Source: a virus
Taxonomy: Duplodnaviria > Caudoviricetes
Direction: 5' to 3' (one strand)
IMG/VR virus record: IMGVR_UViG_3300020166_000084
Span: 1 to 29,160 of that record
DNA length: 29,160 bases
The notes under the pieces were generated by a model. The model was not told the origin of the DNA. It made no database searches and worked only from the letters and a program-made list of their open reading frames with translations. Position 1 is the stretch's first letter, and every line of letters begins with the position of its first letter. This document shows positions 1 through 19,995 of this stretch, piece after piece. Position numbers and translations under genes: made by a program.

Positions 1-201
1 ATCCAAGGAGCAACAGGAGCACAAGGAGCTGTTGGAGCTAAAGGAGATCAAGGAGATCAAGGAATCCAAGGAGTAACAGGAGCACAAGGAGCTGTTGGAG
101 CAACAGGTCTTAAAGGAGATCAAGGAGATCAAGGAATCCAAGGAGCAACAGGAGCACAAGGAGCTGTTGGAGCTAAAGGAGATCAAGGAGATCAAGGAAT
201 C
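1..201 (+). repeat. Near-identical 63/72-nt tandem units within collagen 0
   Basis: atccaagg recurs at 1, 64, 136 and 199 (spacing 63, 72, 63 nt = 7, 8, 7 triplets). Confidence 0.8.
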
Positions 202-555
202 CAAGGTATTCAAGGAGTTCAAGGAGCTGTTGGAGCTAAAGGAGATAAAGGAGATAAAGGAGATACTGGAGCTCAAGGAGCAACAGGAGCTCAAGGAGCA
301 GTTGGTCCTACTGGAGCACAAGGAGTAGACGGAACAACAGGATCTACTGGAGCACAAGGATCACAAGGAGCTCAATTATCTTTAATCGCATCTAGTGGTA
401 TTGATATTAGTAATAATGTATTAGGAGGAACAACAGACGTTATTGATTTAGATTCATCTGGAAAAGTAGTTTTATCAACAAAAACTATCGATTTCGGAGG
501 AGGAACAACAATAGTAAAAGATGATTCAACTGGAGACATTCTATTTAACTTCTAA
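1..555 (+). CDS. Collagen-like (Gly-X-Y) fibre protein, 5'-truncated
   Basis: Not in the ORF track (no start codon in the window). Frame 1 reads [20 protein letters not shown]... as uninterrupted Gly-X-Y to about nt 372, then a ~60-aa non-collagenous C-terminus ending ...STGDILFNF, with TAA at 553-555. Confidence 0.9.
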
Positions 556-604: not shown

Positions 605-2947
605 ATGGCAATGAAATTTAATGTAAACACTGGTGTATTTGAAGCCGACATTTTTGAAGAAGGTACAACAAATACCGGTTTAAATCCATCACAAGGTACT
701 GTATTTGCTAATGCTTATTTTGAAGAAATAAATGCCGGGGTCCCCGTATTGGGGGCCCAGGGTACTGGTGTAGTATATGCTAGTTATGAATTTGATGGTG
801 TTATGAAAATGGATTCTAATTCTACAATTGGAAACAACCAAATATTAACAACAAATAATTTTGTAGCAAGTAATTACCCAGATCTTAAAGGAGCTATAGG
901 ACATATTGGTTTAATAGGAGCACAGGGAGCTACAGGTGAAAAAGGGTTTCAAGGTTCAACTGGATCTACGGGGTTTAATGGTATTCAAGGTACTAAAGGA
1001 GCTCAAGGATCTAATGGCCTAAAGGGATCTGATGGACCTGACGGTGACATCGGTTATCAAGGAGCACAAGGTTCTCAAGGAGATAGAGGTTATCAAGGAG
1101 CAACTGGTTTAAATGGTTATAAAGGATCACAAGGAGCTACTGGAATTAATGGAGCAGTCGGTCCAAGAGGTTATCAAGGAACTCAAGGAGCTATTGGTAA
1201 TAATGGACCACAAGGAACTCAAGGAGCTAAAGGTAATCAAGGATCAACAGGATCAAAAGGAGCAGACTCAGATAGAGGAGCTCAAGGAGCTGTTGGAGAC
1301 AGAGGTTATAAAGGACCAACTGGATTATCAGGAGACAGAGGAGCACAAGGAGCTACTGGAGATAAAGGATTTATAGGATTAAAAGGAAATAATGGAGCCC
1401 AAGGAGCTGTTGGTAATACTGGTCTTACTGGACCACAAGGACCTCAGGGATCTACTGGAGCAAAGGGTTTTCAAGGAGCTATAGGTACTAAAGGTAATCA
1501 AGGTGGAGCTGGTGATACAGGTACACAAGGAGTTACTGGAAAACCAGGTTATCAAGGAGGAATAGGAGATCAAGGAAATAATGGACCACAAGGTTCTACT
1601 GGAGGAGTTGGTACTAAAGGAGCCCAAGGATCTCAAGGATCTACTGGGCCAATCGGATTTAAAGGATCACAAGGATCTACCGGTATTATAGGAGACCAAG
1701 GATCTACTGGACCAAGAGGACCTCAAGGATCTCAAGGATCTACCGGAGCTACTGGAAACATTGGACCTGTTGGAACTCAAGGATCTGCCGGATTAGGCGG
1801 AAATAGAGGACCACAAGGATCACAAGGAGCTACTGGACCTAAAGGTTTTGCTGGAGCCCCTGGATTTAAAGGTATTAAAGGAGACCAAGGATCTGGAGGA
1901 CCAAGAGGACCTCAAGGATCTCAAGGATCTACCGGAACTACTGGAAACATTGGACCTGTTGGAACTCAAGGATCTGCCGGATTAGGTGGAAATAGAGGAC
2001 CACAAGGATCACAAGGAGCTACTGGACCTACAGGATTTAAAGGATTTATCGGACTCAAAGGTCTTAAAGGAAACCAGGGATCTACTGGACCAAAAGGAAC
2101 TCAAGGAGCTCAAGGAGCTGAAGGAGCCGGTGGAAACACTGGACCAGTCGGAACTCAAGGAGCCGCCGGAGGTGGTGGAAGTAGAGGACCACAAGGATCG
2201 CAAGGAGCTGACGGAGCTTATGGATTTAAAGGATTAACCGGACACAGAGGACCTCAAGGATCTCAGGGTGGAAGCGGACCAAGAGGACCCCAAGGATTAG
2301 AAGGAGATTATGGATTTAAAGGACCAACTGGACCTGTTGGAAATCAAGGAGCTAACGGATTCCAAGGTTATAAAGGATATATTGGAATACAGGGATCTAC
2401 TGGACCAAAAGGTTATATAGGTTTTAAAGGTATTACTGGAGAACTTGGTTTTAAAGGAGCAACTGGAGCAACTGGAGTTCAAGGTTATAAAGGACCAATT
2501 GGACCTAAAGGAAATCAAGGAACTGCAGGACCAAAAGGAAATCAAGGAACACCCGGGCCTTTAGGACCTAAAGGTATTACCGGACCAACTGGACCACAAG
2601 GAGGATCAGGAGCAAGAGGACCTCAAGGAAATCAAGGAGGACAGCCGGCAACAACTGGAGCTGGAGCACAAGGTTATCGAGGAGTTCAAGGAAATCAAAT
2701 GGCTGACGGAGCACAAGGAGCAACCGGAGCTGTTGGTAATCAAGGAGGAGCAGGAGCCACAGGTAGTGCTGGAGCACCAGGACCAAGAGGACCAAAGGGA
2801 GCTACAGGACCATCAGTTGGAGGATTAACTGGACCACAAGGGGCTAAAGGAATTCAAGGTCTTAATGCAGCTAATGGAACTGGAACAACTGGAACATTAT
2901 ATCACAATTTTGGTTCGTCATCCGTTAGTAACGGAAGGGTTAACTAA
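605..2947 (+). CDS. Collagen-like fibre protein, chain 1 (780 aa)
   Basis: 95-aa N-terminal domain, Gly-X-Y from G96 to about residue 759, short C-terminal motif GTTGTLYHNFGSSSVSNGRVN. Confidence 0.93.
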   Translation: MAMKFNVNTGVFEADIFEEGTTNTGLNPSQGTVFANAYFEEINAGVPVLGAQGTGVVYASYEFDGVMKMDSNSTIGNNQILTTNNFVASNYPDLKGAIGHIGLIGAQGATGEKGFQGSTGSTGFNGIQGTKGAQGSNGLKGSDGPDGDIGYQGAQGSQGDRGYQGATGLNGYKGSQGATGINGAVGPRGYQGTQGAIGNNGPQGTQGAKGNQGSTGSKGADSDRGAQGAVGDRGYKGPTGLSGDRGAQGATGDKGFIGLKGNNGAQGAVGNTGLTGPQGPQGSTGAKGFQGAIGTKGNQGGAGDTGTQGVTGKPGYQGGIGDQGNNGPQGSTGGVGTKGAQGSQGSTGPIGFKGSQGSTGIIGDQGSTGPRGPQGSQGSTGATGNIGPVGTQGSAGLGGNRGPQGSQGATGPKGFAGAPGFKGIKGDQGSGGPRGPQGSQGSTGTTGNIGPVGTQGSAGLGGNRGPQGSQGATGPTGFKGFIGLKGLKGNQGSTGPKGTQGAQGAEGAGGNTGPVGTQGAAGGGGSRGPQGSQGADGAYGFKGLTGHRGPQGSQGGSGPRGPQGLEGDYGFKGPTGPVGNQGANGFQGYKGYIGIQGSTGPKGYIGFKGITGELGFKGATGATGVQGYKGPIGPKGNQGTAGPKGNQGTPGPLGPKGITGPTGPQGGSGARGPQGNQGGQPATTGAGAQGYRGVQGNQMADGAQGATGAVGNQGGAGATGSAGAPGPRGPKGATGPSVGGLTGPQGAKGIQGLNAANGTGTTGTLYHNFGSSSVSNGRVN
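1709..2290 (+). repeat. 189-nt (21-triplet) super-repeat, about 3 copies
   Basis: ggacca(aga/aaa)gga at 1709, 1898, 2087 and 2276; the first two copies are nearly identical. Confidence 0.9.
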
Positions 2948-2988: not shown

Positions 2989-5145
2989 ATGGCTAAACTT
3001 AAATTAGGAACTGAATTAGAAAATGATCTTATTCTCCATGCCGGTATTTTAAATAGTACTAATTATCCGCAATTCGTTGGACAGCAAGGTGCTCAAGGAT
3101 CTCAAGGAGATCTTGGATCTAAAGGATCTCAAGGAGCTACTGGTTCTGGAGGAGATAAAGGATTTCAAGGAAATCAAGGTTCTTTAGGATCTACTGGTAA
3201 CAATGGATATCAAGGATCTACTGGAGCTAAAGGTTCTCAAGGTTCTCAAGGTTCTTTAGGTAATAAAGGACCTCAAGGAGCTACTGGATCTGAAGGAGAT
3301 AGAGGATCTCAAGGATCTAACGGAGCTACTGGTTTCGAAGGAAACATAGGATCTCAAGGATCTACTGGCTCAACAGGGCCTGTTGGAGACCAAGGAGCTG
3401 TTGGAGATACTGGATTTAAAGGAGCCAATGGTGCTACTGGATTTACAGGATTTAAAGGAGCAACTAGTGCAACTGGACCAAAAGGATCTCAAGGATCACA
3501 AGGATTTACAGGATTTAAAGGAGCAACTAGTACAACTGGACCAAAGGGTTATCAAGGATCTCAAGGATTAAAAGGATTTACTGCTGCAACTGGACCAAAA
3601 GGATATACAGGATATATTGGATCAACTGGTTCTACTGGAACTGCAGGTTCTCAAGGAGCAACTGGAGCACAAGGAGCTAAAGGATCAACTGGAGCTAAAG
3701 GTTATACTGGAGCAACAGGATCAGAAGGTTTTCAAGGAGTACAGGGTAGTAAAGGACCCCAAGGAGCTGCAACAGGGGCTGCCCTTACGGGTTATAAAGG
3801 ATATATCGGATTAAAAGGTTTTACTGGAACTGCAGGTTCTCAAGGAGCACAGGGAGCTACTGGAGCCCCTGGTTATGAAGGATTTGTTGGAATTTCAGGA
3901 TCTCAAGGAGGAACAGGATCAACTGGAGACGGTGGAGATAAAGGATTTATCGGATTTAAAGGTTCTGATGGACCAGGAGGTTATAAAGGATATATTGGAT
4001 TAAAAGGTTCTACTGGACCTGGAGGTTCTCAAGGAACTCAAGGTTCTCAAGGAGCTCAGGGTTATGAAGGATTAATCGGAACTGCAGGTTCTCAAGGAGG
4101 TACAGGATCAACTGGACCTGGTGGAGATAAAGGATTTATCGGATTTAAGGGTTCTGATGGACCAGGAGGTTATAAAGGATATATTGGATTAAAAGGTTCT
4201 ACTGGACCTGGAGGTTCTCAAGGAGCACAAGGTTCTCAAGGAGCACAGGGTTATAAAGGATTTATCGGAATTTCAGGATCTCAAGGAAATACAGGATCAA
4301 CTGGACCTAGTGGAGATAAAGGATTTATCGGATTTAAAGGTTCTGATGGACCTGGAGGTTACAAAGGATATATTGGATTAAAAGGAGCTGTTGGAACAAC
4401 CGGAGGTCAAGGATCTCAAGGTGTAAGAGGACATCAAGGAGCTGGAGGAGCAGCTGGTAGTACTGGACCACAGGGGGTAACAGGAGTAAAAGGAAATCAA
4501 GGAGCTCAAGGTTATATAGGATTTAAAGGAGCTGGAGGACCAAGAGGTTTTCAAGGAGCACAAGGATCTCAAGGAAACCAAGGGATTGCAGGAAGTCAAG
4601 GTTCTCAAGGAGCACAAGGTTACGAAGGAACAAGAGGATATCAAGGAGCTGGAGGACCACAAGGATCAAGAGGATCTCAAGGTTATACTGGACCACAAGG
4701 TATAGTTGGTATTGGTGGACCTCAAGGAGCTCAAGGAGCTGCTGGACCTACTGGATATCAGGGAATTACTGGATCACAAGGATCTGGAGGACCAGGTGGT
4801 TATAAAGGTTTTAAAGGAGTAAATGGACCTGTTGGAAATACTGTAGGAGCTGGATTCCAAGGAGTTCAAGGTTATAAAGGACTAAACGGACCTGCTGGAC
4901 CAACCGGACCAACAGGTTATAAAGGACCAAACGGACCAACAGGTTATAAAGGACTTTTAGGTTTTCAAGGAAATCAAGGAAATACAGGATTAACTGGATC
5001 AACTGGAGCCGGACCACAAGGAGCTCAAGGAGCTCAAGGTTCTAATGGTGCATACGGAACAGGAGGAATGAATAACGTGATGGGATTCTTTGATGACAAC
5101 GTCGGTAACGCAGTTAACGTTCAAAATGGTTTTTGTAACTTTTAA
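2989..5145 (+). CDS. Collagen-like fibre protein, chain 2 (718 aa)
   Basis: 30-aa N-terminus (MAKLKLG...ILHAGILNSTNYPQFV), Gly-X-Y from G31 to 692, C-terminal motif GMNNVMG...VNVQNGFCNF. Confidence 0.93.
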   Translation: MAKLKLGTELENDLILHAGILNSTNYPQFVGQQGAQGSQGDLGSKGSQGATGSGGDKGFQGNQGSLGSTGNNGYQGSTGAKGSQGSQGSLGNKGPQGATGSEGDRGSQGSNGATGFEGNIGSQGSTGSTGPVGDQGAVGDTGFKGANGATGFTGFKGATSATGPKGSQGSQGFTGFKGATSTTGPKGYQGSQGLKGFTAATGPKGYTGYIGSTGSTGTAGSQGATGAQGAKGSTGAKGYTGATGSEGFQGVQGSKGPQGAATGAALTGYKGYIGLKGFTGTAGSQGAQGATGAPGYEGFVGISGSQGGTGSTGDGGDKGFIGFKGSDGPGGYKGYIGLKGSTGPGGSQGTQGSQGAQGYEGLIGTAGSQGGTGSTGPGGDKGFIGFKGSDGPGGYKGYIGLKGSTGPGGSQGAQGSQGAQGYKGFIGISGSQGNTGSTGPSGDKGFIGFKGSDGPGGYKGYIGLKGAVGTTGGQGSQGVRGHQGAGGAAGSTGPQGVTGVKGNQGAQGYIGFKGAGGPRGFQGAQGSQGNQGIAGSQGSQGAQGYEGTRGYQGAGGPQGSRGSQGYTGPQGIVGIGGPQGAQGAAGPTGYQGITGSQGSGGPGGYKGFKGVNGPVGNTVGAGFQGVQGYKGLNGPAGPTGPTGYKGPNGPTGYKGLLGFQGNQGNTGLTGSTGAGPQGAQGAQGSNGAYGTGGMNNVMGFFDDNVGNAVNVQNGFCNF
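3790..4390 (+). repeat. 189-nt (21-triplet) super-repeat, about 3 copies
   Basis: (g/a)gtggagataaaggatttatcggattt at 3931, 4120 and 4309. Confidence 0.9.
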
Positions 5146-5192: not shown

Positions 5193-7328
5193 ATGGCTAA
5201 ATTAAGAACAGGATCTCTCATATCAGGCGTATCTAACTTTTTACATGAAGGCAACTTCAACCCTAATAATTACACGTATTTTACAGGTAATCAAGGTGAT
5301 AAAGGAGCTACTGGAGAAAAAGGAACGACTGGATCTGGAGGATTTAAAGGAGCCCAAGGTTCTAAAGGAGCAACAGGATTAACTGGAGCAACTGGTGATA
5401 GAGGTTTTCAAGGAGCTATAGGAAATAGCCCTACAGGACCTACTGGATTAAAGGGAGCAATTGGAGTAACACATACAGGATATAAAGGATCACAAGGTTC
5501 TACCGGAGCCGGCGGAGACAGAGGTTTTCAAGGAGCCCAAGGTTCTACATTAACAGGTTACACTGGATATAAAGGAGCTCAAGGTATTACAGTAAAAGGA
5601 TATCAAGGAGCAAAAAGAGAAAGAGGTTTTCAAGGAGCAACTGGTGATACATTAAATGCTTATACTGGAGATACTGGAGCTAAAGGTTATCAAGGAGATC
5701 AAGGATCACAAGTTGCAGCTTTCAGAGGAGATCAAGGAGCTATTGGAACACAGGGTTCTCAAGGAGATCTTGTTAGAGGAGTACAAGGATCACAAGGAGC
5801 ACAGGGAACTAAAGGTTTTAAAGGTTCACAGCCTACTGGTTTTACTGGAAATCAAGGATCAACTGGTGAAAGAGGAACTCAAGGTTCTTCTCCAAAAGGA
5901 AATCAAGGAGCAATAGGATTAATTGGACCAACAGGTTTAAAAGGTTCTTCTCCAAGAGGAGCCCAAGGAGCACAAGGAGCCCAAGGAGATAAAGGATTTA
6001 AAGGAGCACAGCCAACTGGACCAGGTGGAGATAGAGGAAATCAAGGAGCACAAGGACTTAAAGGAGCACAACCAGGAGGTTATAAAGGAATTAAAGGAGC
6101 ACAAGGATCACAAGGATCACAAGGTTCTTCTCCAAGAGGAACACAAGGAGCTCAAGGAGCTCAAGGTTATATAGGATTTAAAGGAGCACAGCCTGGCGGA
6201 AACACCGGAGCTAGAGGACCACAGGGAGACCAAGGAGCTAAAGGAGCTCAACCTGGAGGTTATACTGGATTTAAAGGAGCACAAGGATCACAAGGATCAC
6301 AAGGTTCTTCTCCAAGAGGAACACAAGGAGCTCAAGGAGCTCAAGGTTACATAGGACTTAAAGGAGCACAACCAACAGGAGCAACTGGATCTAGAGGACC
6401 ACAGGGAGATCAAGGAGCTAAAGGAGCTCAACCTGGAGGTTATACTGGATTTAAAGGAGATCAAGGACCCCAAGGACCCCAAGGTTCTTCTCCAAGAGGA
6501 ACACAAGGAGCCCAAGGACCCCAAGGTTATAAAGGATTTATAGGTTTAACGCCTACCGGGCCTCAAGGATCTCAAGGAGCTGGAGGTTATAAAGGATTTA
6601 TTGGACCATCACCAACAGGTTATAAAGGACCTATAGGTAATATAGGACCTCAAGGAAATCAAGGTTCTTCTCCAAGAGGACCAAATGGAGCAGCAGGACA
6701 AATAGGTTCTACTGGACCAAAAGGAGCTCAACCCGGAGGAAATAGAGGACCTCAAGGAAGTCAAGGTTCACAGGGTGTAGTTGGAAATTCTCCTACTGGA
6801 CCAAAAGGTTATCAAGGAACTGAAGGAGCCCCTGGTGAAAGAGGAACAGGACCTGTAGGTTATAAAGGACCTCAAGGAACTCAGGGATTACTTGGAAATT
6901 CTCCTACTGGACCAAGAGGACCTCAAGGAGCACAAGGTTATACAGGTTTTAAAGGACCAACTGGTGCAAGAGGACCTCAAGGACAAAGAGGAGTTCAAGG
7001 ATATATTGGAGTTTCAGCTGGAGCTGGGCCAAGAGGACCTCAAGGAGCTACTGGACCAAGAGGAGTTCAAGGAGGAAGAGGAAATCAAGGAGCTAAAGGA
7101 CTTAATGGATTCCAAGGAGATACTGGAGCAGGTAATGGAACTGGACCAACTGGACCACAAGGAATTAAAGGAGCATCAGGATCAAGTTATACTGGATTTA
7201 ACGGTACTTTATATTTTAATCAGTATGATGTTGCATTCCAGCATGGTTTAGTAGTAGCTATAACTAACACCGGTGGAGGACCACCACCTCCAGGAGGAGG
7301 AGGAGACGAAGGTGGAGGAAGATTATAA
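5193..7328 (+). CDS. Collagen-like fibre protein, chain 3 (711 aa), periodically interrupted
   Basis: 31-aa N-terminus (MAKLRTG...FLHEGNFNPNNYTYFT), Gly-X-Y with 27 one-residue-deletion interruptions, C-terminal motif GFNGTLYFN...FQHGLVV and a Gly/Pro tail. Confidence 0.93.
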   Translation: MAKLRTGSLISGVSNFLHEGNFNPNNYTYFTGNQGDKGATGEKGTTGSGGFKGAQGSKGATGLTGATGDRGFQGAIGNSPTGPTGLKGAIGVTHTGYKGSQGSTGAGGDRGFQGAQGSTLTGYTGYKGAQGITVKGYQGAKRERGFQGATGDTLNAYTGDTGAKGYQGDQGSQVAAFRGDQGAIGTQGSQGDLVRGVQGSQGAQGTKGFKGSQPTGFTGNQGSTGERGTQGSSPKGNQGAIGLIGPTGLKGSSPRGAQGAQGAQGDKGFKGAQPTGPGGDRGNQGAQGLKGAQPGGYKGIKGAQGSQGSQGSSPRGTQGAQGAQGYIGFKGAQPGGNTGARGPQGDQGAKGAQPGGYTGFKGAQGSQGSQGSSPRGTQGAQGAQGYIGLKGAQPTGATGSRGPQGDQGAKGAQPGGYTGFKGDQGPQGPQGSSPRGTQGAQGPQGYKGFIGLTPTGPQGSQGAGGYKGFIGPSPTGYKGPIGNIGPQGNQGSSPRGPNGAAGQIGSTGPKGAQPGGNRGPQGSQGSQGVVGNSPTGPKGYQGTEGAPGERGTGPVGYKGPQGTQGLLGNSPTGPRGPQGAQGYTGFKGPTGARGPQGQRGVQGYIGVSAGAGPRGPQGATGPRGVQGGRGNQGAKGLNGFQGDTGAGNGTGPTGPQGIKGASGSSYTGFNGTLYFNQYDVAFQHGLVVAITNTGGGPPPPGGGGDEGGGRL
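5583..6900 (+). repeat. 60-nt (20-aa) periodic unit with a 180-nt higher-order repeat
   Basis: G-x-x-x-x pentamers at 5583, 5643 ... 6843, exactly 60 nt apart; aaggttcttctccaagagga at 5941, 6121, 6301, 6481 and 6661. Confidence 0.92.
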
Positions 7329-7453: not shown

Positions 7454-8377
7454 ATGCATTTAACAAAAAACCAAAATGTTAGACTTCATGTTGATTCTGT
7501 TAATAGAGTAAATGAATCATACCAAATCCAAGGTTGGATTGGAACAAACATAAGTGCTATAGTTGATATTCATATTGATGGATATTCTATCGTTCCATCA
7601 TTTTCAGAAAGAGAAGACGTTAAACAAGTATATCTAAACTTAGAAGGAGATTCTCTAGGTTTTAATATATTAGTTAATAAAATAGATATTAATAAAGATA
7701 TTTCTATAATTTTAGAAAATGGCGAAACCATATCAAACGTATACTGTTTTTCTGGAGATGTCGTTGCAGGTTCAGGTTTCAATAGAACTGATAAGGATGT
7801 TATCGTAGTAGATAATTTTTATGCAGATCCAGATTTAGTAAGAGAATACACTATGAACAATCTTGAATTCAAACCTTCAGGATATCATAAAGGACAAAGA
7901 TCAACTTCTAAGTTTATATTAGAAGGTACTAAAGAAAAATTAGAAGAAGTTATTGGTAAAAAAATAAAAAACTGGAACTATGAAAGATATGCAAATGGTG
8001 TTTTTCAGTTTTGTACAGCAGATCAACCTATAGTGTACCATGTTGATACACAAATGTATGCTGCGATGGTTTATTTAACACCAGACGCTCCACCTCAAAC
8101 AGGTACTGCAATGTATAGAAGCAAGGTAAATGGAATAAATGTATTTCCAACTCCTGAATCAATGTCAACCAAAGAATATGCAGATGCTTTTACAGGAACA
8201 AATGACGGTATGAATTTTTACGATGGAACTCTTTTTGAAAAAATAGATGATGTCGGAAACGTATATAATAGATTAGTAATTTTTAATTCATCACAAATAC
8301 ACGCAGCAACAGAATACTTTGGAGATGCAATCGACAACGCTAGATATTTCCACATGTTCTTCTTTGATGTAGAATAA
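7454..8377 (+). CDS. 2OG-Fe(II) oxygenase (DUF6445-like) with an extra N-terminal beta domain
   Basis: IVVDNFYADPD, H-x-D (YHVD), AAMVYLTP, NRLVIF..IH and a distal R form the DSBH facial-triad pattern. The N-terminal ~110 aa carry GW..RxDV..GF, reminiscent of Ig-like domains in glycan enzymes. Confidence 0.75.
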   Translation: MHLTKNQNVRLHVDSVNRVNESYQIQGWIGTNISAIVDIHIDGYSIVPSFSEREDVKQVYLNLEGDSLGFNILVNKIDINKDISIILENGETISNVYCFSGDVVAGSGFNRTDKDVIVVDNFYADPDLVREYTMNNLEFKPSGYHKGQRSTSKFILEGTKEKLEEVIGKKIKNWNYERYANGVFQFCTADQPIVYHVDTQMYAAMVYLTPDAPPQTGTAMYRSKVNGINVFPTPESMSTKEYADAFTGTNDGMNFYDGTLFEKIDDVGNVYNRLVIFNSSQIHAATEYFGDAIDNARYFHMFFFDVE

Positions 8378-8390
8378 AATTTAAGATTTA

Positions 8391-10289
8391 ATGCAAACAA
8401 TAAACATTATTACAAGATGTACCAGGCCAAATAACCTGCCTAAAGTTATGGATTCTGTATTTCATAAAGTGCCTAGTAATTTAAAAATTAACTGGCATGT
8501 TTTATTCGATACAGTTCCTTTAAAAGATATTGATGCTGGAATACTTTCCACTATAAGTTCAAATAATACCAAAATTCATTTTGTTAGAGGAGGAGACGGT
8601 GGTTTATTATATCCACAATCAACTAAATTAATTAAAACATTTGATAAAGATTCTTGGTTTTATTTTTTAGACGACGATAATATAATCCATGAAGATTTTT
8701 ATAAACATGTTGGTGGAAATACTATTCTAGAAAATAATAGCAATCATTTAATACATGTAGTTTCTCAACAAGTTGACGGTAAGGACTTTACTGGATTAGA
8801 TGTTAGAGTTGCAACTCCAGAAAATACAGGCTTTCAGAAAACAGATATTGCTCAAGTAATTATTAAATCAGAGTTAATCGATAATTATTCTTTTGGGGCA
8901 AGTTACGCTGCTGATGGATATTTTATTCAAGCAGTCCTTGATGAACATCCTGAATACTTCTCTTATCACAACTTAGTGTTAAGCCATTATAACTACTTAG
9001 AAAAAAAAGCAGCCCCTAAGTTGCCTAGAATATTATACATTGGTGAGGGAACTCCTGATTTAAAAAGTAAAAAATGGCTAAATTATGAGTCCGAAGATCT
9101 TGATGTTAGATATTTAGAAGATGATCAATTTATAAGAATTACAGTTGCTGAATTTAATCCTGATATGATAGTCACAAGAGGAGAACATTGGGCAGAATTT
9201 AGAAATGTAGCTAATATGCCACTTCAATTTCGTAAAAAATGGATCCATGTAGATGTTAAAGACGGCGTAGACTCAGTTAAAGATATAGGGGAATGGGCAT
9301 ATAATTGTTCAATGCATGCAATGTTAAATACTGATAATTTAGATGATCCAAATTTAATATCTTTCTTTACTCCAATTTATAATACTGGACAAAAACTAAG
9401 AACAACTTACAAATCAGTAGCTGCACAAACTTATGAAAATTGGGAATGGATTTTAATGAATGATTCTACTGATGGTGGAAAAACTCTTAAAATTGCAGAA
9501 GAAATTGCAGCTCAAGATCCAAGAGTTAAAGTATATGATTTGAGAAAAAAATCAGGTGGATGTATTGGAGAGGTAAAATGGAGAGCATGTTCAATGGCTA
9601 CTGGATATATTTTAGCTGAATTAGATCATGATGATATTTTAGCAGATACATGTGCTCAAGATTTACATGATGCTGCACAAGCTCACCCAGAATGTGGATT
9701 CTTTTTTGGAGATACTGCAGAGATTTATGAAAATGGAAAACCACATACATACCCCCCCGATGGTTCGTTTGCATTAGGATATGGAAATTACAGAGATGAA
9801 AAATATCATGACATGGATTTAATAGTATGTAATCAACATAACATTAATCCTAAAACAATTAGACATATTGTTGGAGTTCCTAATCATATTAGAGCATGGA
9901 GAAGATCTACTTATTTTGAAATAGGAGGACATAATAGAAGTTTAACAGTTGCTGATGATTATGAACTAGTGATTAGAACTTTCTTAAACACGATAATGTG
10001 TAAAATTCCAAAGCTTTCTTATATTCAATTAATATACAATAACGCAGGTGGAAGAAATACTCACGATTTATCAAGAGAAGATATACAGAGAAGAACAAGA
10101 ACAATTTCCGATTATTATAATGAGGATATTAAAAATAGATTTGAAGAGCTTGGTGTTCATGACTGGGCTTACGAAGAAAACCCAGATTACCCAATACATT
10201 CAAAATCCAGATTTGGAAAGGATGAAGGTGCAGTAAACATAACATATATAAAAGAAAATGAAAACATACACATTCCAACCGGAAACTAA
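8391..10289 (+). CDS. Multidomain glycosyltransferase with two GT2/GT-A domains
   Basis: N-terminal domain IITRCTR...FLDDDN (DxD); C-terminal domain FTPIYN...NDSTD...ELDHDD...DDYEL. Confidence 0.85.
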   Translation: MQTINIITRCTRPNNLPKVMDSVFHKVPSNLKINWHVLFDTVPLKDIDAGILSTISSNNTKIHFVRGGDGGLLYPQSTKLIKTFDKDSWFYFLDDDNIIHEDFYKHVGGNTILENNSNHLIHVVSQQVDGKDFTGLDVRVATPENTGFQKTDIAQVIIKSELIDNYSFGASYAADGYFIQAVLDEHPEYFSYHNLVLSHYNYLEKKAAPKLPRILYIGEGTPDLKSKKWLNYESEDLDVRYLEDDQFIRITVAEFNPDMIVTRGEHWAEFRNVANMPLQFRKKWIHVDVKDGVDSVKDIGEWAYNCSMHAMLNTDNLDDPNLISFFTPIYNTGQKLRTTYKSVAAQTYENWEWILMNDSTDGGKTLKIAEEIAAQDPRVKVYDLRKKSGGCIGEVKWRACSMATGYILAELDHDDILADTCAQDLHDAAQAHPECGFFFGDTAEIYENGKPHTYPPDGSFALGYGNYRDEKYHDMDLIVCNQHNINPKTIRHIVGVPNHIRAWRRSTYFEIGGHNRSLTVADDYELVIRTFLNTIMCKIPKLSYIQLIYNNAGGRNTHDLSREDIQRRTRTISDYYNEDIKNRFEELGVHDWAYEENPDYPIHSKSRFGKDEGAVNITYIKENENIHIPTGN

Positions 10290-10848
10290 CGACGCCCAAA
10301 ACTATTATTATTTTAATAATGGATTTTCAAGTTCAGAATTAGATCTTATATCTAAAGGAGTAGAGAATATTCCATTTGAAATAGCAACAACCGCAGCGGG
10401 AATTGATGAGGTTAGGAAATCAAATATTAAATGGATTCCTCAAACTGAGGAATGGGAATGGTTGTATTATAAATTAATGGATTTTGCTCAGAGAGCTAAT
10501 AATGAAATGTGGAGATTTGATTTAAAATCAACACCTGAATTAATACAATATACAGAATACCACGGAACTGAAAATGGAAAATATGATTGGCATCAAGATC
10601 TTGGCCCAGGAGAATTATCCATAAGAAAGATTTCTATGACCGTTCAATTATCAGATGATCATGAATATACCGGAGGAGACTTAGAATTCTGGCACGGAGG
10701 AACTTCATTAGAAGATACAGATTCAGCTCCTAGAGGAAAAGGAACAGTTGTAATCTTTCCTAGTTACCTTAATCACGCAGTTAAGCCAGTTACATCTGGC
10801 GTTAGAAAATCATTTGTTCTTTGGTTAGGAGGAGGACACTTTAAATAA
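10258..10848 (+). CDS. 2OG-Fe(II) oxygenase, PKHD/prolyl-4-hydroxylase-like
   Basis: WHQD, RKISMTVQLSD, YTGGDLEF, FPS..HAVKPVTSGVRKS (HxD...H...R-x-S). Confidence 0.88.
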   Translation: MKTYTFQPETNDAQNYYYFNNGFSSSELDLISKGVENIPFEIATTAAGIDEVRKSNIKWIPQTEEWEWLYYKLMDFAQRANNEMWRFDLKSTPELIQYTEYHGTENGKYDWHQDLGPGELSIRKISMTVQLSDDHEYTGGDLEFWHGGTSLEDTDSAPRGKGTVVIFPSYLNHAVKPVTSGVRKSFVLWLGGGHFK

Positions 10849-10856
10849 AATAAGCT

Positions 10857-11090
10857 ATGGGATATCCAGATATGAAATGTATGAAAATTAAGATTTATGT
10901 CCACCACATGGAGATAGATTCGATGTTTGATTTTATTAATCAAAGAATATCGAACCCTCCAGAGTATTGGATTAATCCTAAAGATTTACCAAACAGTATA
11001 ACTGGTGGATTTTTAGAAGTTTTCGTAGATTACGACACTTACACTTCAATTAGAGAAGTATCAGAACATTCTAATTGGTCTGATCTTTAA
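10857..11090 (+). CDS. Hypothetical protein (77 aa)
   Basis: Fills the gap on the coding strand; no recognisable motif. Confidence 0.6.
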   Translation: MGYPDMKCMKIKIYVHHMEIDSMFDFINQRISNPPEYWINPKDLPNSITGGFLEVFVDYDTYTSIREVSEHSNWSDL

Positions 11091-11095
11091 TATCT

Positions 11096-11156
11096 ATTAT
11101 ATTCATTTAAATATAATTCCCCGCCAGGGAAACTTTTATATTTAAATGAATATAAT
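11096..11156. repeat. 21-bp perfect inverted repeat with an inner GC mini-hairpin
   Basis: attatattcatttaaatataa (11096-11116) is the reverse complement of ttatatttaaatgaatataat (11136-11156); the interior reads ttccc-cgcca-gggaa. Confidence 0.9.
11130..11156 (+). promoter_or_regulatory. Putative 'middle' promoter, AAAC-N17-TATAAT
   Basis: AAAC at 11130-11133 and TATAAT at 11151-11156. Confidence 0.7.
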
Positions 11157-11162
11157 TATAGT

Positions 11163-11411
11163 ATGGCAAAGAGAAAAGAAAAGAAAGTTAAGCACATTTT
11201 TGTAAAGAAACCTAAAATAGGTTCGAATTACTATTTTGATTTTGCAGGTGGTTGGGAATATGGAGAGCTTATCGCTGAATCCGAAAAATTAACCGAGCAC
11301 TATGGACATAATTGGTATACTTTACAAAATAAAAATCACGAAGGTAGAGATATAAAATATCCAGTGCCTATCTATAATCTTAGAAATAATAAAGAGGAAA
11401 CTGAAAAATAA
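11163..11411 (+). CDS. Hypothetical protein (82 aa, basic N-terminus)
   Basis: ATG 6 nt after the promoter motif; abuts the next gene. Confidence 0.65.
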   Translation: MAKRKEKKVKHIFVKKPKIGSNYYFDFAGGWEYGELIAESEKLTEHYGHNWYTLQNKNHEGRDIKYPVPIYNLRNNKEETEK

Positions 11412-11413
11412 AA

Positions 11414-12136
11414 ATGTATACTTCATCAGAATTAAAAGGAATGTTATTTATCGATATTGAGACAGCTTCTCAATACGAAACATTAAAGGATTTAAAAAAA
11501 GATAAAGAAAGTTTGTATGATTTGTGGATTGCTAAGGCAACTCAAATAAAATCTTTCGAATCTGATAAAGCAGATTTAACTGATCAAGAGATGTTTAAGA
11601 GAACCTCTTCACTCCACCCTGAGTTTGGTAAAATAATTACAATATCAATTGGTCAAATTAAATTTGATGAGATAGGTCTTCCTGTAAAAACAAATATTAA
11701 ATCTTTTTATGGAGACGACGAAGTTGCTCTACTAAATGAATTTAATCAAACAATGCAGGCTGTTTTTAATCAAAATTCAAGTGTCAAATTAATAGGACAT
11801 AACATTAAAAGATTTGATATGCCATGGATTATTAAAAGATGTCTTATTAATGGAATTACACCAATTCATCAATTCCATTTACAGAAACAAAAACCTTGGG
11901 AAAACTGTTTACTAGATACTTTAGAGATTTGGAAATTTGGAGGATATTCTGGAGCATCCTTAGATCTTATTTGTAATATATTTAATATTCCTTCTCCTAA
12001 AGATGCCATGAAAAATACAGATGTTTCTGAGCATTATTGGGGAGGAAGACTTGAAGATATTAAAAATTACTGTGAAGGAGATGTTTTAGCAACAATGAAT
12101 GTTATGCTAAAACTATCTAATATGCCGATTTTATGA
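11414..12136 (+). CDS. PolB-type/DnaQ-like 3'-5' exonuclease
   Basis: ExoI FIDIET, ExoII GHNIKRFD, ExoIII YCEGDV; the KPWE...LDT..WKFG segment resembles Bacteroidota standalone exonucleases. Confidence 0.85.
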   Translation: MYTSSELKGMLFIDIETASQYETLKDLKKDKESLYDLWIAKATQIKSFESDKADLTDQEMFKRTSSLHPEFGKIITISIGQIKFDEIGLPVKTNIKSFYGDDEVALLNEFNQTMQAVFNQNSSVKLIGHNIKRFDMPWIIKRCLINGITPIHQFHLQKQKPWENCLLDTLEIWKFGGYSGASLDLICNIFNIPSPKDAMKNTDVSEHYWGGRLEDIKNYCEGDVLATMNVMLKLSNMPIL

Positions 12137-12966
12137 AAGTATGGGCCTATGTAGTCGCATGGAATGAAGAGTTGATGCTTCCTTATTACCTAAGACACTA
12201 TTCTACATTTTGTGATAAAATAATAGTATACGACAATATGTCAACAGATTCAACGAGAATGATCGCAGAATCCTATGGAGATATGGTTGAAGTTATACCA
12301 TTTGAAAGCGGAGAAGAATTTAATGACTATATTCATGTTGATCTAAAAACAAGCAGTATAGAACATGCTAAAGGAAATGCTGATTTTGTTATCTTATGTG
12401 ATTGTGATGAGTTTGTATTTCATAAAGATTTAAGATCTTTTTTAAATAAAAATAAAAACTGTAGTGTTTTTTATCCAGCAGGTTTTCAAATGGTATCTAA
12501 TACTTTTCCTGAAAACTTAGAAGGTCAATTATATGATTATGTCCAATGGGGAGAACCTAATCCATGGTATTCTAAACCAATGATAATCAATTTAAATATA
12601 GTACATCATTTACAATTTGTTGAAGGTGCTCATGAATTAGATCCAGATTTTAATTTAGGTGATTTTTGGCACCCTGTTCCTGAAAATATTAGACCTCTTG
12701 GAGAATATAAAAAACATAAATGGGGAAAATGGCAAAAAATGTGGGAAATATTAGACACATTTAATTCAAAACCTCTTAAAATGTTGCATTATAAATATCT
12801 TGGAGAGGATTATGTGAATGACAGATATAAATTATACGCTAAAAAAATGAGTAAAGCTAACCATGAAAGTGGAATAGGAATGCATTATCAAGAAATCATA
12901 GATAAAGATGCCGTTAAGATGGAAATAGATGAAATTAAATCAAAGGCAGTTAGAGTAAAAATATGA
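12133..12966 (+). CDS. Glycosyltransferase family 2-like protein
   Basis: WNEELMLPYYLRHY, YDNMSTD, DCDEF (DxD), KP..., LHYKY. Confidence 0.82.
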   Translation: MKVWAYVVAWNEELMLPYYLRHYSTFCDKIIVYDNMSTDSTRMIAESYGDMVEVIPFESGEEFNDYIHVDLKTSSIEHAKGNADFVILCDCDEFVFHKDLRSFLNKNKNCSVFYPAGFQMVSNTFPENLEGQLYDYVQWGEPNPWYSKPMIINLNIVHHLQFVEGAHELDPDFNLGDFWHPVPENIRPLGEYKKHKWGKWQKMWEILDTFNSKPLKMLHYKYLGEDYVNDRYKLYAKKMSKANHESGIGMHYQEIIDKDAVKMEIDEIKSKAVRVKI

Positions 12967-13208
12967 ATATAAATCAAGTACTTAGATCTGGTAAATACGC
13001 TGGATATACTATTGGGGAAATATACGCTAAAGATCGTAGGTATATTAATTGGGTTTTAGAAAATAGACCTGAAATGCTTAAAAGTCATTCAAAAAAACCT
13101 CAAGAAACTACTTATAAGAAACCAACATATATAGATCCACCTGATATTCCAAACAAACAAAAGGATGTAATTAAACCAGTTTCTCCAAAAGATGCCTTTG
13201 GATTGTAA
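12963..13208 (+). CDS. Small protein with a GKY-G...YI-W motif (ExoX C-terminal/DUF3820-like)
   Basis: SGKYAGYTIGEI...RRYINWVLEN. Confidence 0.55.
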   Translation: MNINQVLRSGKYAGYTIGEIYAKDRRYINWVLENRPEMLKSHSKKPQETTYKKPTYIDPPDIPNKQKDVIKPVSPKDAFGL

Positions 13209-13234
13209 TTATTTTTGAAAAAAAGTCACAAAAA

Positions 13235-13285
13235 GTTTTTTTATCCCAATTATTTTGCTTATATTAGTATAGTAATTAAAAAACA
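13235..13285 (+). promoter_or_regulatory. Putative early (host sigma) promoter, copy 1
   Basis: 45/51 nt identical to 17441-17491; TATATTAG (13260-13267) is one mismatch from the Bacteroidota -7 element TAnnTTTG. Confidence 0.75.
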
Positions 13286-13292
13286 AATAAAC

Positions 13293-13625
13293 ATGAGTAA
13301 TCCACACTACGAACATCAATTAAAATTAGACGCTATGAAAAAACACACTAAATTATCGTCGAGAAACAAAACGCTTCTTTTAATGGGGGCAAAGACCACT
13401 GGATCCTTTACAGAAGGATATTATTATATCGAAGAAAGTTTATATCTCGATGAGGCAGATGAACTTCACACATTCTGTATGTGGATCGATAATCAAATCG
13501 GAGGTGCAGGCCCAGTTAATATCGATATGCTTTGGTTAGGGTTTAAATACCCTGAAGTAGATAAGTATTCTTTGGCTTGTGTAGAAATCAAGAAACAAAT
13601 GCATGAAATTAAATCATACTGCTAA
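13293..13625 (+). CDS. Hypothetical early protein (110 aa; start revised from 13215)
   Basis: The track's TTG start at 13215 runs through the promoter repeat. ATG 13293 (MSNPHYEH...) follows an A-rich leader like the one before ATG 17497. Confidence 0.7.
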   Translation: MSNPHYEHQLKLDAMKKHTKLSSRNKTLLLMGAKTTGSFTEGYYYIEESLYLDEADELHTFCMWIDNQIGGAGPVNIDMLWLGFKYPEVDKYSLACVEIKKQMHEIKSYC

Positions 13626-13909
13626 TGTACCGCGACGAAGAATTTGAAGACTTTAACTCCGAGGGAGAAGGAGGCATTGATCTAAACCAAGATCAACAAG
13701 AACATTTAGATGCTATAAAGGATAGATTGGCTAGAGCTAACTATGAAGCTATTGTTAAACATGGTGTTGATCCAGAAAGCACTAATAATATAGACATTAT
13801 TAAACATCTTATTGAAGAAACTATGTTATACTTTCAAGATCTAGAGGAATATGAAAAATGTGCAGAATTAAAAAAAGCGCTAGATCATTTAGAACTCACT
13901 CTGATTTAA
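13625..13909 (+). CDS. Small protein with a C-terminal UVR-like (EEYEKC) helical hairpin, paralog 1
   Basis: YFQDLEEYEKCAELKK. Confidence 0.65.
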   Translation: MYRDEEFEDFNSEGEGGIDLNQDQQEHLDAIKDRLARANYEAIVKHGVDPESTNNIDIIKHLIEETMLYFQDLEEYEKCAELKKALDHLELTLI

Positions 13910-13910
13910 T

Positions 13911-13920
13911 AGATATATAA
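13911..13920 (+). promoter_or_regulatory. Putative late promoter motif, AGATATATAA
   Basis: Identical to 19996-20005; similar motifs at 15372, 19081 and 23743. Confidence 0.45.
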
Positions 13921-13940
13921 TATAATAATAAAATAATAAT

Positions 13941-14081
13941 ATGGACTTAACTCAAGTTTTAGAAAGAATTGCCTCTTCTTTAGAGGAAATTGCTTTACTT
14001 ATGAAAAATAAGCAAAAAAGAGAAATAAATGAATCTCTTCGTAAAAATAAGAAATCTGGCAAGTCTGTTAAAAAGAAATAA
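13941..14081 (+). CDS. Small basic protein (46 aa), not in the ORF track
   Basis: [46 protein letters not shown]; A-rich leader; stop 2 nt before the dnaJ ATG. Confidence 0.65.
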
Positions 14082-14083
14082 AG

Positions 14084-14878
14084 ATGGATCCTTATAGTGT
14101 ACTAGGTGTAGACAATAAATCTTCACAAGATGACATAAAAAAGGCTTATAGAAAATTAGCAAAAAAACACCACCCTGACAAAAACAACGGTGACGATGTA
14201 AGATTTAAAGAAATTGCGGATGCTTACGAAAAAATAGGAGATTCGCAAAAAAGAAAAGAATACGATTCCGTTAATTCTTTTTCTACCTCAGGTTTTTCAG
14301 ATATTTTTAGTAGATTTGAAGGTGATTTCTCAAACATGTTTGATAATTCATTTGGCCAACAAGCTCGCGGAAATGACGTTACCATTCGAATAATGTTATC
14401 TATGGATGAGGTATATTATGGAACTACAAAATACGTAGAAACATCTAATCAAAAATTTAATATTAAAATTCCTAAAGGAATTTATGAAAACGCTAAACTA
14501 AAAGTTAAAGGAAAAGGCATGCCACATCCTTTAAACTCGTCAGCCCCTAGCGGAGACGCTATAGTAATAGTAAATATTGCTAGAGATCCTAACATGATTG
14601 TGACAAATGGAGATATATGGTTAGATTATGAACTTCCATTTTATGATTTATTATTAGGAGGAACATTTGAAATAAATACAAGATTTAATGATGTTAAAAT
14701 TAAAGTTCCAAAAAATTCTCAAGAAAATAAGGTTTTAAGAATTAAGGGCATGGGATTTCCGATATATAATACAGATCAGTATGGAAATTTAATGATTAAG
14801 CTAAGAGCTTCAAAAATATCTTTAACTGAAGAACAATTAGAACATATAAAAAAAATTAAAGAATTAAATAATGCATAG
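14084..14878 (+). CDS. dnaJ: DnaJ/CbpA-like class B J-domain co-chaperone
   Basis: J domain (DPYSVLGV...[16 protein letters not shown]), short F/S/D-rich linker, two C-terminal domains (KIPKG; LRIKGMGFP), no zinc finger. Confidence 0.9.
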
Positions 14879-15125
14879 TTTAGAAGATTTTCCAGATTTT
14901 TCAGGAGAAGATAATATAGATAGCTTGAAGGAAAATTCAAGAGTCACCATGATGAACATGATATACAATGCAATTATGAACAATGAGGATAGAGCAATTG
15001 ATAGCGACACCTCTCCTAGTGAAAAGGTAAAAGCTCTTAATAATATTATAGAATTCTTTGTTAGCTGCGAAGAATATGAAAAATGTTCTAACATTAAAAA
15101 AATTATCGATAAAATTAAATGCTAA
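14871..15125 (+). CDS. Small protein with a UVR-like EEYEKC motif, paralog 2
   Basis: [16 protein letters not shown]. Confidence 0.65.
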
Positions 15126-15307
15126 AGATAGAGGTTAAAAAAGGAAATATCGAACAGGCTCTTAAATCTTATAAATATAAGGTGAATAGAACAAAACAAA
15201 GACAAGAAATAAGCGAAAGAAAGGAATATACAAAACCATCTATTATAAAACGCAAAAAGATTCAAAAAGCAAAGTATATTCAAAAGAAATTTAAAGGCGA
15301 TTCTTAG
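15119..15307 (+). CDS. rpsU: Ribosomal protein bS21
   Basis: I.VK.GNIEQALK.YK.KV...E...RKEYTKPS..KR...KAKY matches the S21 signature; 62 aa, highly basic. Confidence 0.9.
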   Translation: MLKIEVKKGNIEQALKSYKYKVNRTKQRQEISERKEYTKPSIIKRKKIQKAKYIQKKFKGDS

Positions 15308-15427
15308 CACTTTAGATTATAATATCATTATATTTTTTTTACAATATCGGACTGTTAACCAGCAATGCCAGGTATATATAAAAAGTAAAGTAGTATACAA
15401 CTACTATGCTAAAAAACACTGACAAAA

Positions 15428-15685
15428 ATGAAAGATATATTAGGAGAGGATAGAGACTCTTTAATGAGATCTTCCTATTATACAATTACTAGAAATTTTA
15501 CAAAAACCGTAAATAGGTTTATAGTATTTAAAGAAGGTAATGACATTATTGAGATACCACATGGAATTGGACAAAGGTCTGATTTCATAGATATTCTTGT
15601 TGAATATTTTGAAAATCTAGAAGAATACGAAAAATGCGATAAATTAATGAAATTAAGAGAACTTGTAATGATGGCAGGTAACTAA
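15428..15685 (+). CDS. Small protein with a UVR-like EEYEKC motif, paralog 3
   Basis: YFENLEEYEKCDKLMK. Confidence 0.65.
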   Translation: MKDILGEDRDSLMRSSYYTITRNFTKTVNRFIVFKEGNDIIEIPHGIGQRSDFIDILVEYFENLEEYEKCDKLMKLRELVMMAGN

Positions 15686-15699
15686 AAATAAAATAAAAT

Positions 15700-16404
15700 A
15701 TGAGCAATAATTCTGACAACAAAAACAGTAGGGTAAACAGAAATAAAATAAATGTTAAACCCGAAAATATCAGAGTACAATTACGACAATCACAACAAAA
15801 ATACGTTCAAAAAATACTAGAGAACGACATCACATTCTGCCAAGGACCAGCAGGAACTTCAAAAACATTTACGGCCTGCTATGCTGCATTAAAACTTTTT
15901 GCAGATAAAAAAATTAAAAATATAATTCTTTGTAAACCTATACAAGAAGCTGGTGAAAAACTAGGATTTTTACCAGGAGACGTTAGTGATAAAATAGATC
16001 CATACATGCAATCTTATATAACTAATCTAAATAAGATTATAGGACACGCCACAACAGAACAATTAGTAGAATCTGAAATTATACAATTTAGACCAATGGC
16101 CTTTATGAGAGGAGATACGTTTGACGATTCTTTAATGATTTTAGATGAAGCTCAAAACGCAACATTTAAGCAGTTAATGCTATTTGTTACGAGAATGGGG
16201 AAAGGATCTAAGGTTATCGTTACTGGCGATGTTAGCCAATATGATATTGCAAAGAACAATATAGGGTTAGAAAAATTCACTGATTTAATGGAAGGTATTA
16301 AAGGTATCGGAAATCACACTTTCACAGAAAAAGATATAGTACGTGCAAAAATATTAAAAGACGTTGTAAAGAGATATGATAAGTGGAAATTAGAAAATGA
16401 GTAG
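15700..16404 (+). CDS. phoH: PhoH-family ATPase
   Basis: GPAGTSKT (Walker A variant), EKLGFLPG, FMRGDTF, LDEAQN, TRMG, TGDVSQ.D, DIVR. Confidence 0.93.
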   Translation: MSNNSDNKNSRVNRNKINVKPENIRVQLRQSQQKYVQKILENDITFCQGPAGTSKTFTACYAALKLFADKKIKNIILCKPIQEAGEKLGFLPGDVSDKIDPYMQSYITNLNKIIGHATTEQLVESEIIQFRPMAFMRGDTFDDSLMILDEAQNATFKQLMLFVTRMGKGSKVIVTGDVSQYDIAKNNIGLEKFTDLMEGIKGIGNHTFTEKDIVRAKILKDVVKRYDKWKLENE

Positions 16405-16431
16405 AAACAAATGATAAATCTTTAGTATAAT
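16405..16431 (+). promoter_or_regulatory. Putative 'middle' promoter, AAAC-N17-TATAAT
   Basis: AAAC at 16405-16408 and TATAAT at 16426-16431. Confidence 0.7.
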
Positions 16432-16447
16432 ACTTAAAGGTTTTAAT

Positions 16448-17430: not shown

Positions 17431-17440
17431 ATGCCCAAAG

Positions 17441-17491
17441 GTTTTTTTATCCCAAGTTTTTTTCTTATATTAGTACTATAATTAAAAAACA
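17441..17491 (+). promoter_or_regulatory. Putative early (host sigma) promoter, copy 2
   Basis: 45/51 nt identical to 13235-13285; TATATTAG at 17466-17473. Confidence 0.75.
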
Positions 17492-17496
17492 TATAC

Positions 17497-17910: not shown

Positions 17911-17917
17911 AAATCTT

Positions 17918-18151: not shown

Positions 18152-18154
18152 TAT

Positions 18155-19078: not shown

Positions 19079-19080
19079 AT

Positions 19081-19090: not shown

Positions 19091-19093
19091 CCT

Positions 19094-19977: not shown

Positions 19978-19995
19978 AAATCAAAAATATAATAT

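Follow-up and report, generated by a model that had tools for sequence, protein, structure and literature searches.

In the animal protein C1q, three different chains wind into one ABC collagen helix with a single kink, which is tied to breaks specific to certain chains (PMC11869133, PMC9898670; these and the other papers cited are drawn on here for the sections available). A system that shares several of these features is encoded by a genome fragment of an uncultured marine phage, IMG/VR virus record IMGVR_UViG_3300020166_000084 (Duplodnaviria; Caudoviricetes), of which positions 1 to 29,160 form the stretch analysed and are termed the window. Its subject is a cassette of three adjoining collagen genes, specifying chains 1, 2 and 3, which are predicted with high confidence from their sequences to form one mixed triple helix; chain 3 (5193..7328) is short of one residue at each of 22 regularly spaced sites. 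The likeness to C1q lies in three different chains sharing one helix and in breaks that are confined to some chains and linked with a bend, which for the phage is a prediction. The differences are that C1q has a single kink with discontinuities in chains A and C, whereas phage chain 3 repeats its deletion 22 times on a lattice of seven triplets; no sequence relationship between the two is shown, and the phage chains are without a gC1q head. They are therefore outside the C1q family, which is marked by that globular head and a bundle of six helices, although the predicted kink would work in a similar way.

Breaks that differ between chains are also found in collagen IV, where the register is kept on both sides and salt bridges flank the breaks (PMC11923368). 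The available text of that paper describes no regular period, and the accessible part of bioRxiv 2020.09.27.315929 reports no global curvature, whereas the phage breaks are periodic and lie in one chain. According to the former source, no crystal structure exists for breaks differing between chains, and a kink has only been proposed (PMC11923368). The GQG site of mannan-binding lectin is likewise a one-residue deletion, and model peptides bend by 11-85 degrees in solution (PMC9898670), but the lectin is a homotrimer in which all three chains carry the break, and only once. Among phage-encoded proteins, EPclA of an Escherichia coli prophage has Gly-X-Y repeats, forms a true triple helix and is probably part of tail fibres (PMC3368898). 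EPclA and other prokaryotic collagens are, however, homotrimers with globular trimerisation domains and few breaks, in contrast to a cassette of three genes with tiny end peptides and periodic breaks. Prokaryotic collagens are presented as homotrimers in the review sections available (PMC8968730), and possible heterotrimers are mentioned for Pasteuria proteins in a text that offers no data on them there (PMC7743900). No natural phage collagen heterotrimer, no periodic deletion in one chain and no ABC triple helix beyond animals was found in the literature searched, the coverage of which left out subscription journals and supplements.

Four collagen genes start the window: the end of an upstream gene for chain 0 (1..555, plus strand, as are the other collagen genes, the chain 3 features and the genes at 7454-12966 given below), which was used as a control, followed by chain 1 (605..2947; 780 amino acids (aa), 219 triplet levels), chain 2 (2989..5145; 718 aa, 221 levels) and chain 3 (711 aa). 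A Pfam scan of chains 1-3 gave only PF01391, at 281, 263 and 142 bits against a cut-off of 27, and no gC1q head; the non-collagen ends are 18-42 residues long, and perfect triplets occur in a run of 151 in chain 1 and in one of 116 in chain 2. The Gly-X-Y frame of chain 3 slips by one residue 22 times, at aa 131, 151 and so on to aa 551 (nucleotides 5583 to 6843), with every spacing along the run exactly 20 aa (60 nt), as an earlier note on this DNA had claimed. With 0.86 nm for each triplet and one break per 20 residues, or seven triplet levels, the run (5583..6857) would take up ~126 nm of the fibre. Twenty of the 22 breaks are five residues long (the last is GTGPV) and two, at aa 151 and 171, are eight residues long, consisting of a pentamer and an Ala-for-Gly substitution. 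The fourth place is Pro in 18 of the window breaks and Val or Leu in four, and the pentamers contain 15% Ser, 15% Thr and 18% Pro compared with 6, 10 and 7%. Outside the run, three earlier breaks lie at aa 77, 91 and 117 (triplet levels 16, 21 and 30; 5421..5555) with spacings of 14, 26 and 14 residues leading into it, a closing break lies at aa 568 (6894..6908), 17 residues or six levels past it, and one more is at aa 663. Gly is also replaced by Arg at aa 142 (5614-5616, a three-base difference); contigs from three of four other marine runs read Gly, and the Arg is a variant or an assembly error. The same holds for positions 3776-3778 in chain 2, where contigs of three of the four other runs differ by three bases that yield a motif like that of ortholog contig L007.

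Super-repeats of 21 triplets (63 residues) are present in chains 1 (z 11) and 2 (z 14) against 300 shuffles, and chain 3 has one of 60 residues, in agreement with the proposal of 20 residues in chain 3 for every 21 in its partners; the 7-triplet sub-period of chains 1 and 2 is by itself weak (z 0.9 and 3.2). The chance of all fives for the 105 triplets across 21 gaps is P ~1e-23, a value that overstates the case because a 180-nt repeat has in part been copied in tandem to make up the units; with three independent units only, P is 0.007. Conservation in orthologs is a better test of the period than this calculation. Protein searches yielded 10 distinct contigs besides that of the window (L007, L024, L026-L030 and L032-L034; L013, L014 and L025 repeat L007, while L035 and L036 repeat L033 and L032). 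Over seven distinct orthologs, counted without the near-duplicates L024, L028 and L033 and 39-70% identical to the window, the chain 3 spacing is 20 in 150 of 172 cases, so that the period is conserved down to 39% identity. Of the other 22 spacings, one is a parser artefact of 40, and the remainder belong to the 14-26-14 series at the start, to the closing step of 17 or to long gaps at the termini. The early breaks are present in L007 and L034, and the L026 subgroup has 41 perfect triplets in their place; the closing step of 17 residues is common to L007, L026, L030 and L032. Pro occupies the fourth place in 120 of 157 ortholog pentamers. By comparison, none of 263 other collagen-rich proteins from the chain 3 homolog search has a comparable 20-residue run, the repeated spacing mode among them being mostly 23 (6 of the 15 having one) and 20 in two. 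A search for relatives among genome contigs found none.

The three chains also vary in length together. With each pentamer counted as two triplets and inserted domains excluded, the triplet levels of chains 1/2/3 are 219/221/219 in the window, 240/242/240 in L007, 230/232/231 in L026, 188/190/189 in L030 and 188/189/189 in both L032 and L033. L007 is longer than the window by 63, 63 and 60 residues in chains 1, 2 and 3, respectively, and L026 is longer than L030 by 126, 126 and 120. Agreement is within two triplets in six of nine loci, rough in one (L034) and missing in two (L024 and L028), and matching lengths are by themselves insufficient as proof of one helix.

Charge pairs between the chains bear more directly on a shared helix. 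The partner of a Lys at position i in a triple helix is an Asp or Glu at i+2 in the following chain or, where the contact runs from the trailing to the leading chain, at i+5 (PMC11923368), a rule that corresponds to offsets of +1, +1 and +2 triplets. All ordered chain pairs were scanned at offsets from -10 to +10 in six loci (the window, L007, L026, L030, L032 and L034), the other complete trios being near-duplicate or mismatched and L027-L029 incomplete. Lys-to-Asp/Glu pairs peak at +1 from chain 2 to chain 1 (93 pairs), +1 from chain 1 to chain 3 (133) and +2 from chain 3 to chain 2 (76), approximately two to three times the remaining offsets; in these loci neither the reverse cycle nor, at +1 or +2, any pairing of like chains gives such a peak. 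Added round the cycle, the offsets give 4, as expected of a single helix, whichever level the count begins from. Gln-to-Phe/Tyr pairs are high at 0, 0 and +1, the lateral geometry of the triple helix, with +1 slightly above 0 from chain 2 to chain 1. Lys/Arg-acid pairs number 308, whereas the best offsets of randomly shifted chains gave 181±6 (0 of 2000), and the order 2-1-3 tops the 27 possible compositions in sum (308, with 249 for the next) and in five of the six loci. Pairing holds across both halves of the periodic part (142 pairs with 59 expected, and 74 with 40). Among controls, self-pairing of chain 0 is seen in L007 (53 pairs at +1 and 52 at +2) and more weakly in L032, no pairing was found between chain 0 and chains 1-3, and chains combined across subgroups are mostly unpaired (one of 20 pairings reaches z 3.1).

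The pairs also discriminate between ways of counting the pentamer. A register of seven levels per 20 residues outscores six and 6.67 per 20 in all six loci, and with 20 chain 3 residues taken as seven triplets, 31 of 40 acidic X residues in the window have a partner. Two other registers were rejected, namely one triplet plus a two-residue loop (six per 20) and free slippage (6.67 per 20), each of which loses pairs in six of six loci; one glycine missing, as the earlier note read the pentamer, is therefore the right reading. In this register the 22 breaks face about 1205-2536 in chain 1 and about 3394-4725 in chain 2. It is very likely from these patterns that chains 2, 1 and 3, as predicted leading, middle and trailing strands, form an ABC heterotrimer, and the premise of three chains in one helix is strongly supported by the pair offsets and by the Gly substitutions described next, with matched lengths in the six loci.

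Chains 1 and 2 respond to the gaps of chain 3. Of the 40 Gly substitutions in these partners, 39 fall at a gap level or the next level (L034 chain 1 being counted only up to its first loop; the 40 amount to 23 events once merged by hand). Partner residues are phase-locked to the gap, with chi2 values of 188 against 97±14 and 224 against 108±14 (0 of 2000 shuffles), after removal of near-duplicate units left 83 and 77 of 132. Salt bridges from chain 1 to chain 3 are crowded two levels before the gap (32) compared with one level before (2). Together, the crowding of salt bridges, the phase-locking and the loss of Gly suggest a locally opened core with a clamp on its N-terminal side.

Related lattices occur in two other phage groups, with units of 7 or 14 triplets and the same kind of pentamer. 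A second three-gene collagen cassette, upstream of a DUF6445 gene in another phage group (L016, L017, L020, L021 and L022), has periods of 43/42/42 (42/42/42 in L016), flaws of both +1 and -1 and a PA14 domain in one chain. Its Gln-to-Phe/Tyr peak offsets sum to 1 in all four complete loci and its Arg/Lys-to-Phe/Tyr offsets to 4 in three of the four, as for one helix. A twist of ~14 triplets per turn gives the best alignment of the flaws of this family on a single face (R 0.66-0.75, compared with 0.14-0.25 at 7/2), although a block-shift null equalled the fit in 174, 226, 165 and 6 of 2000 trials and was thus clearly beaten in one of four loci; flaws facing one side suggest built-in bending. 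A two-gene cassette represents the third group (L038 2-5918, L039 1-5857). Its chain A has pentamers every 20 residues, with 17 in 4 of 26 spacings, and its chain B has 6-triplet units in identical order; pairs suggest one B with two A. Chain A extends 28 triplets past B at the C end, and B has 9-10 pentamers of its own near the start. L048, a relative of the two-gene cassette, encodes 254 + 254 perfect triplets, and pairing gave no clear stoichiometry.

The shape of the fibre was estimated with a crude geometric model of rigid segments, from which the predicted bend angles and twists given here derive. To span two levels with five residues, chain 3 needs 0.343 nm and -123 to -130 degrees per residue. 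A Pro-containing polyproline II stretch provides ~0.31 nm, and the shortfall would be absorbed by the three-strand rod as a bend towards chain 3, modelled at ~36 degrees for the full 0.29 nm and at 22 or 9 degrees if it is partly absorbed. At 7 triplets per turn, 22 such units would give an arc or ring of radius 10-35 nm, and a drift of 10 degrees per unit a coil of radius 9-17 nm. The earlier note had argued that a 7/2 and a 10/3 twist would both give a curly fibre. In the model, the ratio of end-to-end distance to contour is 0.93-0.99 for the 10/3 twist, which is nearly straight, and the argument therefore fails; at 8, 10 and 14 triplets per turn the ratio is 0.76-0.97, 0.93-0.99 and 0.95-1.00, so that the model predicts an arc or coil only if the twist departs by no more than a few degrees from 7 triplets per turn. 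By a torsion count, each unit would close one complete turn at -104.5 degrees per residue, a value lying between those of the two textbook helices, and in the model the short chain would pull the supercoil tighter, towards 7 triplets per turn.

The explanation that we favour combines these elements. Chains 2, 1 and 3 would share a single ABC collagen helix with a length of ~190 nm, which is likely to serve as a virion fibre and along which each seven triplet levels would be covered by 20 residues of chain 3 and not 21. At each gap the core would be locally open, with the salt bridges just before it acting as a clamp, and the Ser/Pro/Thr-rich pentamer would stretch yet fall short of the whole 0.29 nm, leaving a bend of ~10-35 degrees towards chain 3 and hence, probably, a one-sided kink about every 6 nm. 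The deletion would overwind the supercoil towards 7 triplets per turn, such that successive kinks stay near one face and sum to an open coil or arc with a radius of roughly 5-35 nm. The period, its conservation, the matched lengths, the charge pairs and the partner Gly substitutions are evidence at the level of sequence. Given the heterotrimer in register, a fixed kink is probable and kinks sufficiently in phase to curl are somewhat favoured; that the kinks add up to a coil or arc has a little under an even chance.

Several observations weigh against this explanation. The order 2-1-3 comes second in L030, by one pair, and the peak from chain 3 to chain 2 is weak in L026 (z 1.9) and L032 (z 1.7). 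In L024 (240/242/219), which is 99.8% identical to L007, chain 3 alone is short by one 180-nt unit, which may be an assembly collapse on an 86-nt exact repeat; in L028 (-/232/217), 97.5% identical to L026, 120 nt are missing from chain 3 alone and the repeat is only 27 nt; L034 gives 266/245/254 by script and ~266/262/258 after hand correction of the ends. Exact spacing could persist merely because three genes must change jointly. With regard to curling, Pro makes up 9-17% of X and at most seven Y positions per locus. Imino-poor helices tend to 10/3, while 7/2 is linked with imino-rich regions (PMC10765305), and low Pro thus favours 10/3 and a nearly straight rod. The fit of the second-family flaws at ~14 triplets per turn points the same way, as with that twist breaks seven levels apart would alternate sides.

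Of the four rival readings, two dispense with the mixed helix. Three separate homotrimers of equal length, chain 3 having matched breaks in all three strands, would agree with the way prokaryotic collagen-like proteins are described (PMC8968730) and with the mismatched lengths in two loci. However, the axial pairs of the homotrimer compositions number 163, 119 and 139, compared with 308 in the order 2-1-3, the like-chain peak at +1 and +2 is absent though control chain 0 shows one, the cyclic offsets total 4, and the Gly substitutions of chains 1 and 2 follow the chain 3 gaps; this reading is very improbable. Still less credit is due to chain 3 as a self-folded polyproline II bundle of polyglycine type with the pentamers as turns. 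Its fixed 20-residue unit with a Pro break recalls the strand-plus-turn repeats of snow-flea-type antifreeze proteins. That fold is mentioned in PMC11869133. Against it, the charges of chain 3 find partners in chains 1 and 2, in register, throughout both periodic halves, and its length tracks theirs; a non-collagen fold, which the earlier note had listed among possible refutations, is accordingly unlikely.

The other two readings accept the same heterotrimer and differ in what happens at the gaps. If the kinks are real and a supercoil turn takes more than 7 triplets, they would rotate about the axis and cancel, giving a near-straight, fine corkscrew rod of radius 1-3 nm. The low imino content (PMC10765305), the modelled ratios of 0.76-1.00 at 8 to 14 triplets per turn and the best fit of the second-family flaws at 14 all speak for such a rod, but it leaves the multiples of seven triplets in three phage groups unexplained, as it does the absence of such a run in the 263 other collagen-rich proteins with their usual repeated spacing of 23; the torsion count gives overwinding towards 7 per turn, and the 14-per-turn fit is weak in three of four loci. 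We consider it unlikely, if the strongest of the rivals. Somewhat less likely again, the stretched pentamer would impose no fixed bend and serve as a soft hinge or as a spaced site of binding or modification, with the spacing frozen by the register of three genes. The 0.343 nm and -123 to -130 degrees per residue that the pentamer needs are close to an extended strand, the pentamers are rich in Ser, Thr and Pro, and the partner chains tolerate Gly loss at gap levels. Homotrimers are reported to accommodate four-residue interruptions (PMC10765305), and collagen IV to be softened less by one-chain than by two-chain interruptions (bioRxiv 2020.09.27.315929), in the sections available. This hinge is opposed by the lattice, which is not wholly frozen, as matched single-triplet changes occur (6-triplet units at the same places in both L038 chains). 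It is also opposed by Pro in the fourth place (120 of 157), a residue that restricts chain extension.

The ends of the chains offer some indication of the role of the fibre. Chain 3 begins with a 30-residue start motif (5193..5285) that is shared with the start of chain 2 (2989-3078), and a similar stretch, identified by eye, precedes the collagen of chain 1 at about 827-889. This motif weakly resembles the start of T4-type gp36 (PHROGs phrog_1425, E 0.028 for one of nine members; by tblastn, a match beginning with the first codon in a gp36-type gene at E 0.6-0.8, below significance), and comparison with solved structures gave no match. T4 fibres are not collagen. The likeness to the T4 long tail fibre is confined to the first 25 residues, aligned weakly and start to start, and to several fibre genes in a row as in gp34-gp37, the start likeness being below significance (E 0.03-0.8). 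From this we infer that the motif is the docking end on the virion side. At the other end, chain 3 closes with a short non-collagen stretch (7203..7328), and chains 1 (2891-2947) and 2 (5065-5145) end in similar short peptides. The weak gp36 likeness, together with a carbohydrate-binding-like insert in some orthologs, makes an adhesive virion fibre the likely product of the cassette.

Globular inserts occur in one chain at a time with the register kept (L032 11459-11917 and 9774-10295; also L027, L029 and L033). A chain 2 insert of ~155 aa is CBM_4_9-like (Pfam E 0.0008, below the cut-off; atlas 0.92) and a chain 1 insert of ~174 aa gives a weak SPRY lead (atlas 0.88), which hints at glycan binding by the fibre. 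In L034 the C end of chain 3 has a Hint/intein-like domain (12437-12928; Pfam E 0.01), and in L048 the N end of a collagen has another (6148-6552; Pfam E 0.002), both below the cut-off. Chain 0 varies from ~43 to 336 triplets independently of chains 1-3 (window 1-555; L007 1739-4981; L032 4805-7843; L034 4052-4594); from the charge pattern of the L007 ortholog it looks like a homotrimer, possibly a separate proximal stalk.

Adjoining the cassette, a DUF6445 protein (7454..8377; Pfam) is a candidate fibre-modifying enzyme; the position of its gene is kept in L007, and a similar open reading frame is found there in L026, L029, L030 and L032-L034. It is followed by a family 2 glycosyltransferase (8391..10289), also a candidate fibre-modifying enzyme, a 2-oxoglutarate (2OG)-Fe(II) oxygenase (10258..10848), a candidate hydroxylase, and a second family 2 glycosyltransferase (12133..12966) with a putative link to the fibre. 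The Y positions are rich in Thr and Lys and may be targets of modification by the candidate enzymes at 7454-12966. The window comes from a large phage genome and encodes DnaJ, RNase HII, UvdE, a LysM protein and a baseplate OB-fold protein; positions 11414-29160 hold these and other ordinary large-phage genes (3'-5' exonuclease, dCMP deaminase, PhoH-like). The collagen region is present in seven public runs listed, all marine or seawater metagenomes, with at least half of its words in three. A 590-aa gene (23784-25556) shares 30-43% identity with genes of Tenacibaculum, Chryseobacterium, Flavobacterium, Prevotella Lak and Sphingomonas PAU phages, and PF01391 was absent from five cultured relatives and one uncultured record (0/6). 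For most of these nearest cultured relatives the listed hosts are Bacteroidota, which are mostly without flagella. The suggestion of the earlier note that a curly fibre might wrap a host appendage thus finds no support, and nothing in the analysis points to wrapping of a flagellum or pilus.

As of 2025, what breaks differing between chains do to the structure was described as not understood, structures being lacking (PMC11923368, in the sections available). Phage chain 3 repeats a chain-specific break 22 times and comes with natural variants, which makes this question directly testable. A tentative extension is that marine jumbo phages encode the path of a fibre by adding or removing single residues in chosen chains per supercoil turn, giving a spring or hook of set radius with the number of units as its length. 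The variants of such a code in the three phage groups, equally tentative as part of that reading, would be -1 in one chain per seven triplets, -1 in two chains per seven, and +1 and -1 per 14. If it is true that the kinks sum, the cassette would supply a rule for designing curved collagen, and its product would be a phage fibre of a new, shaped kind.

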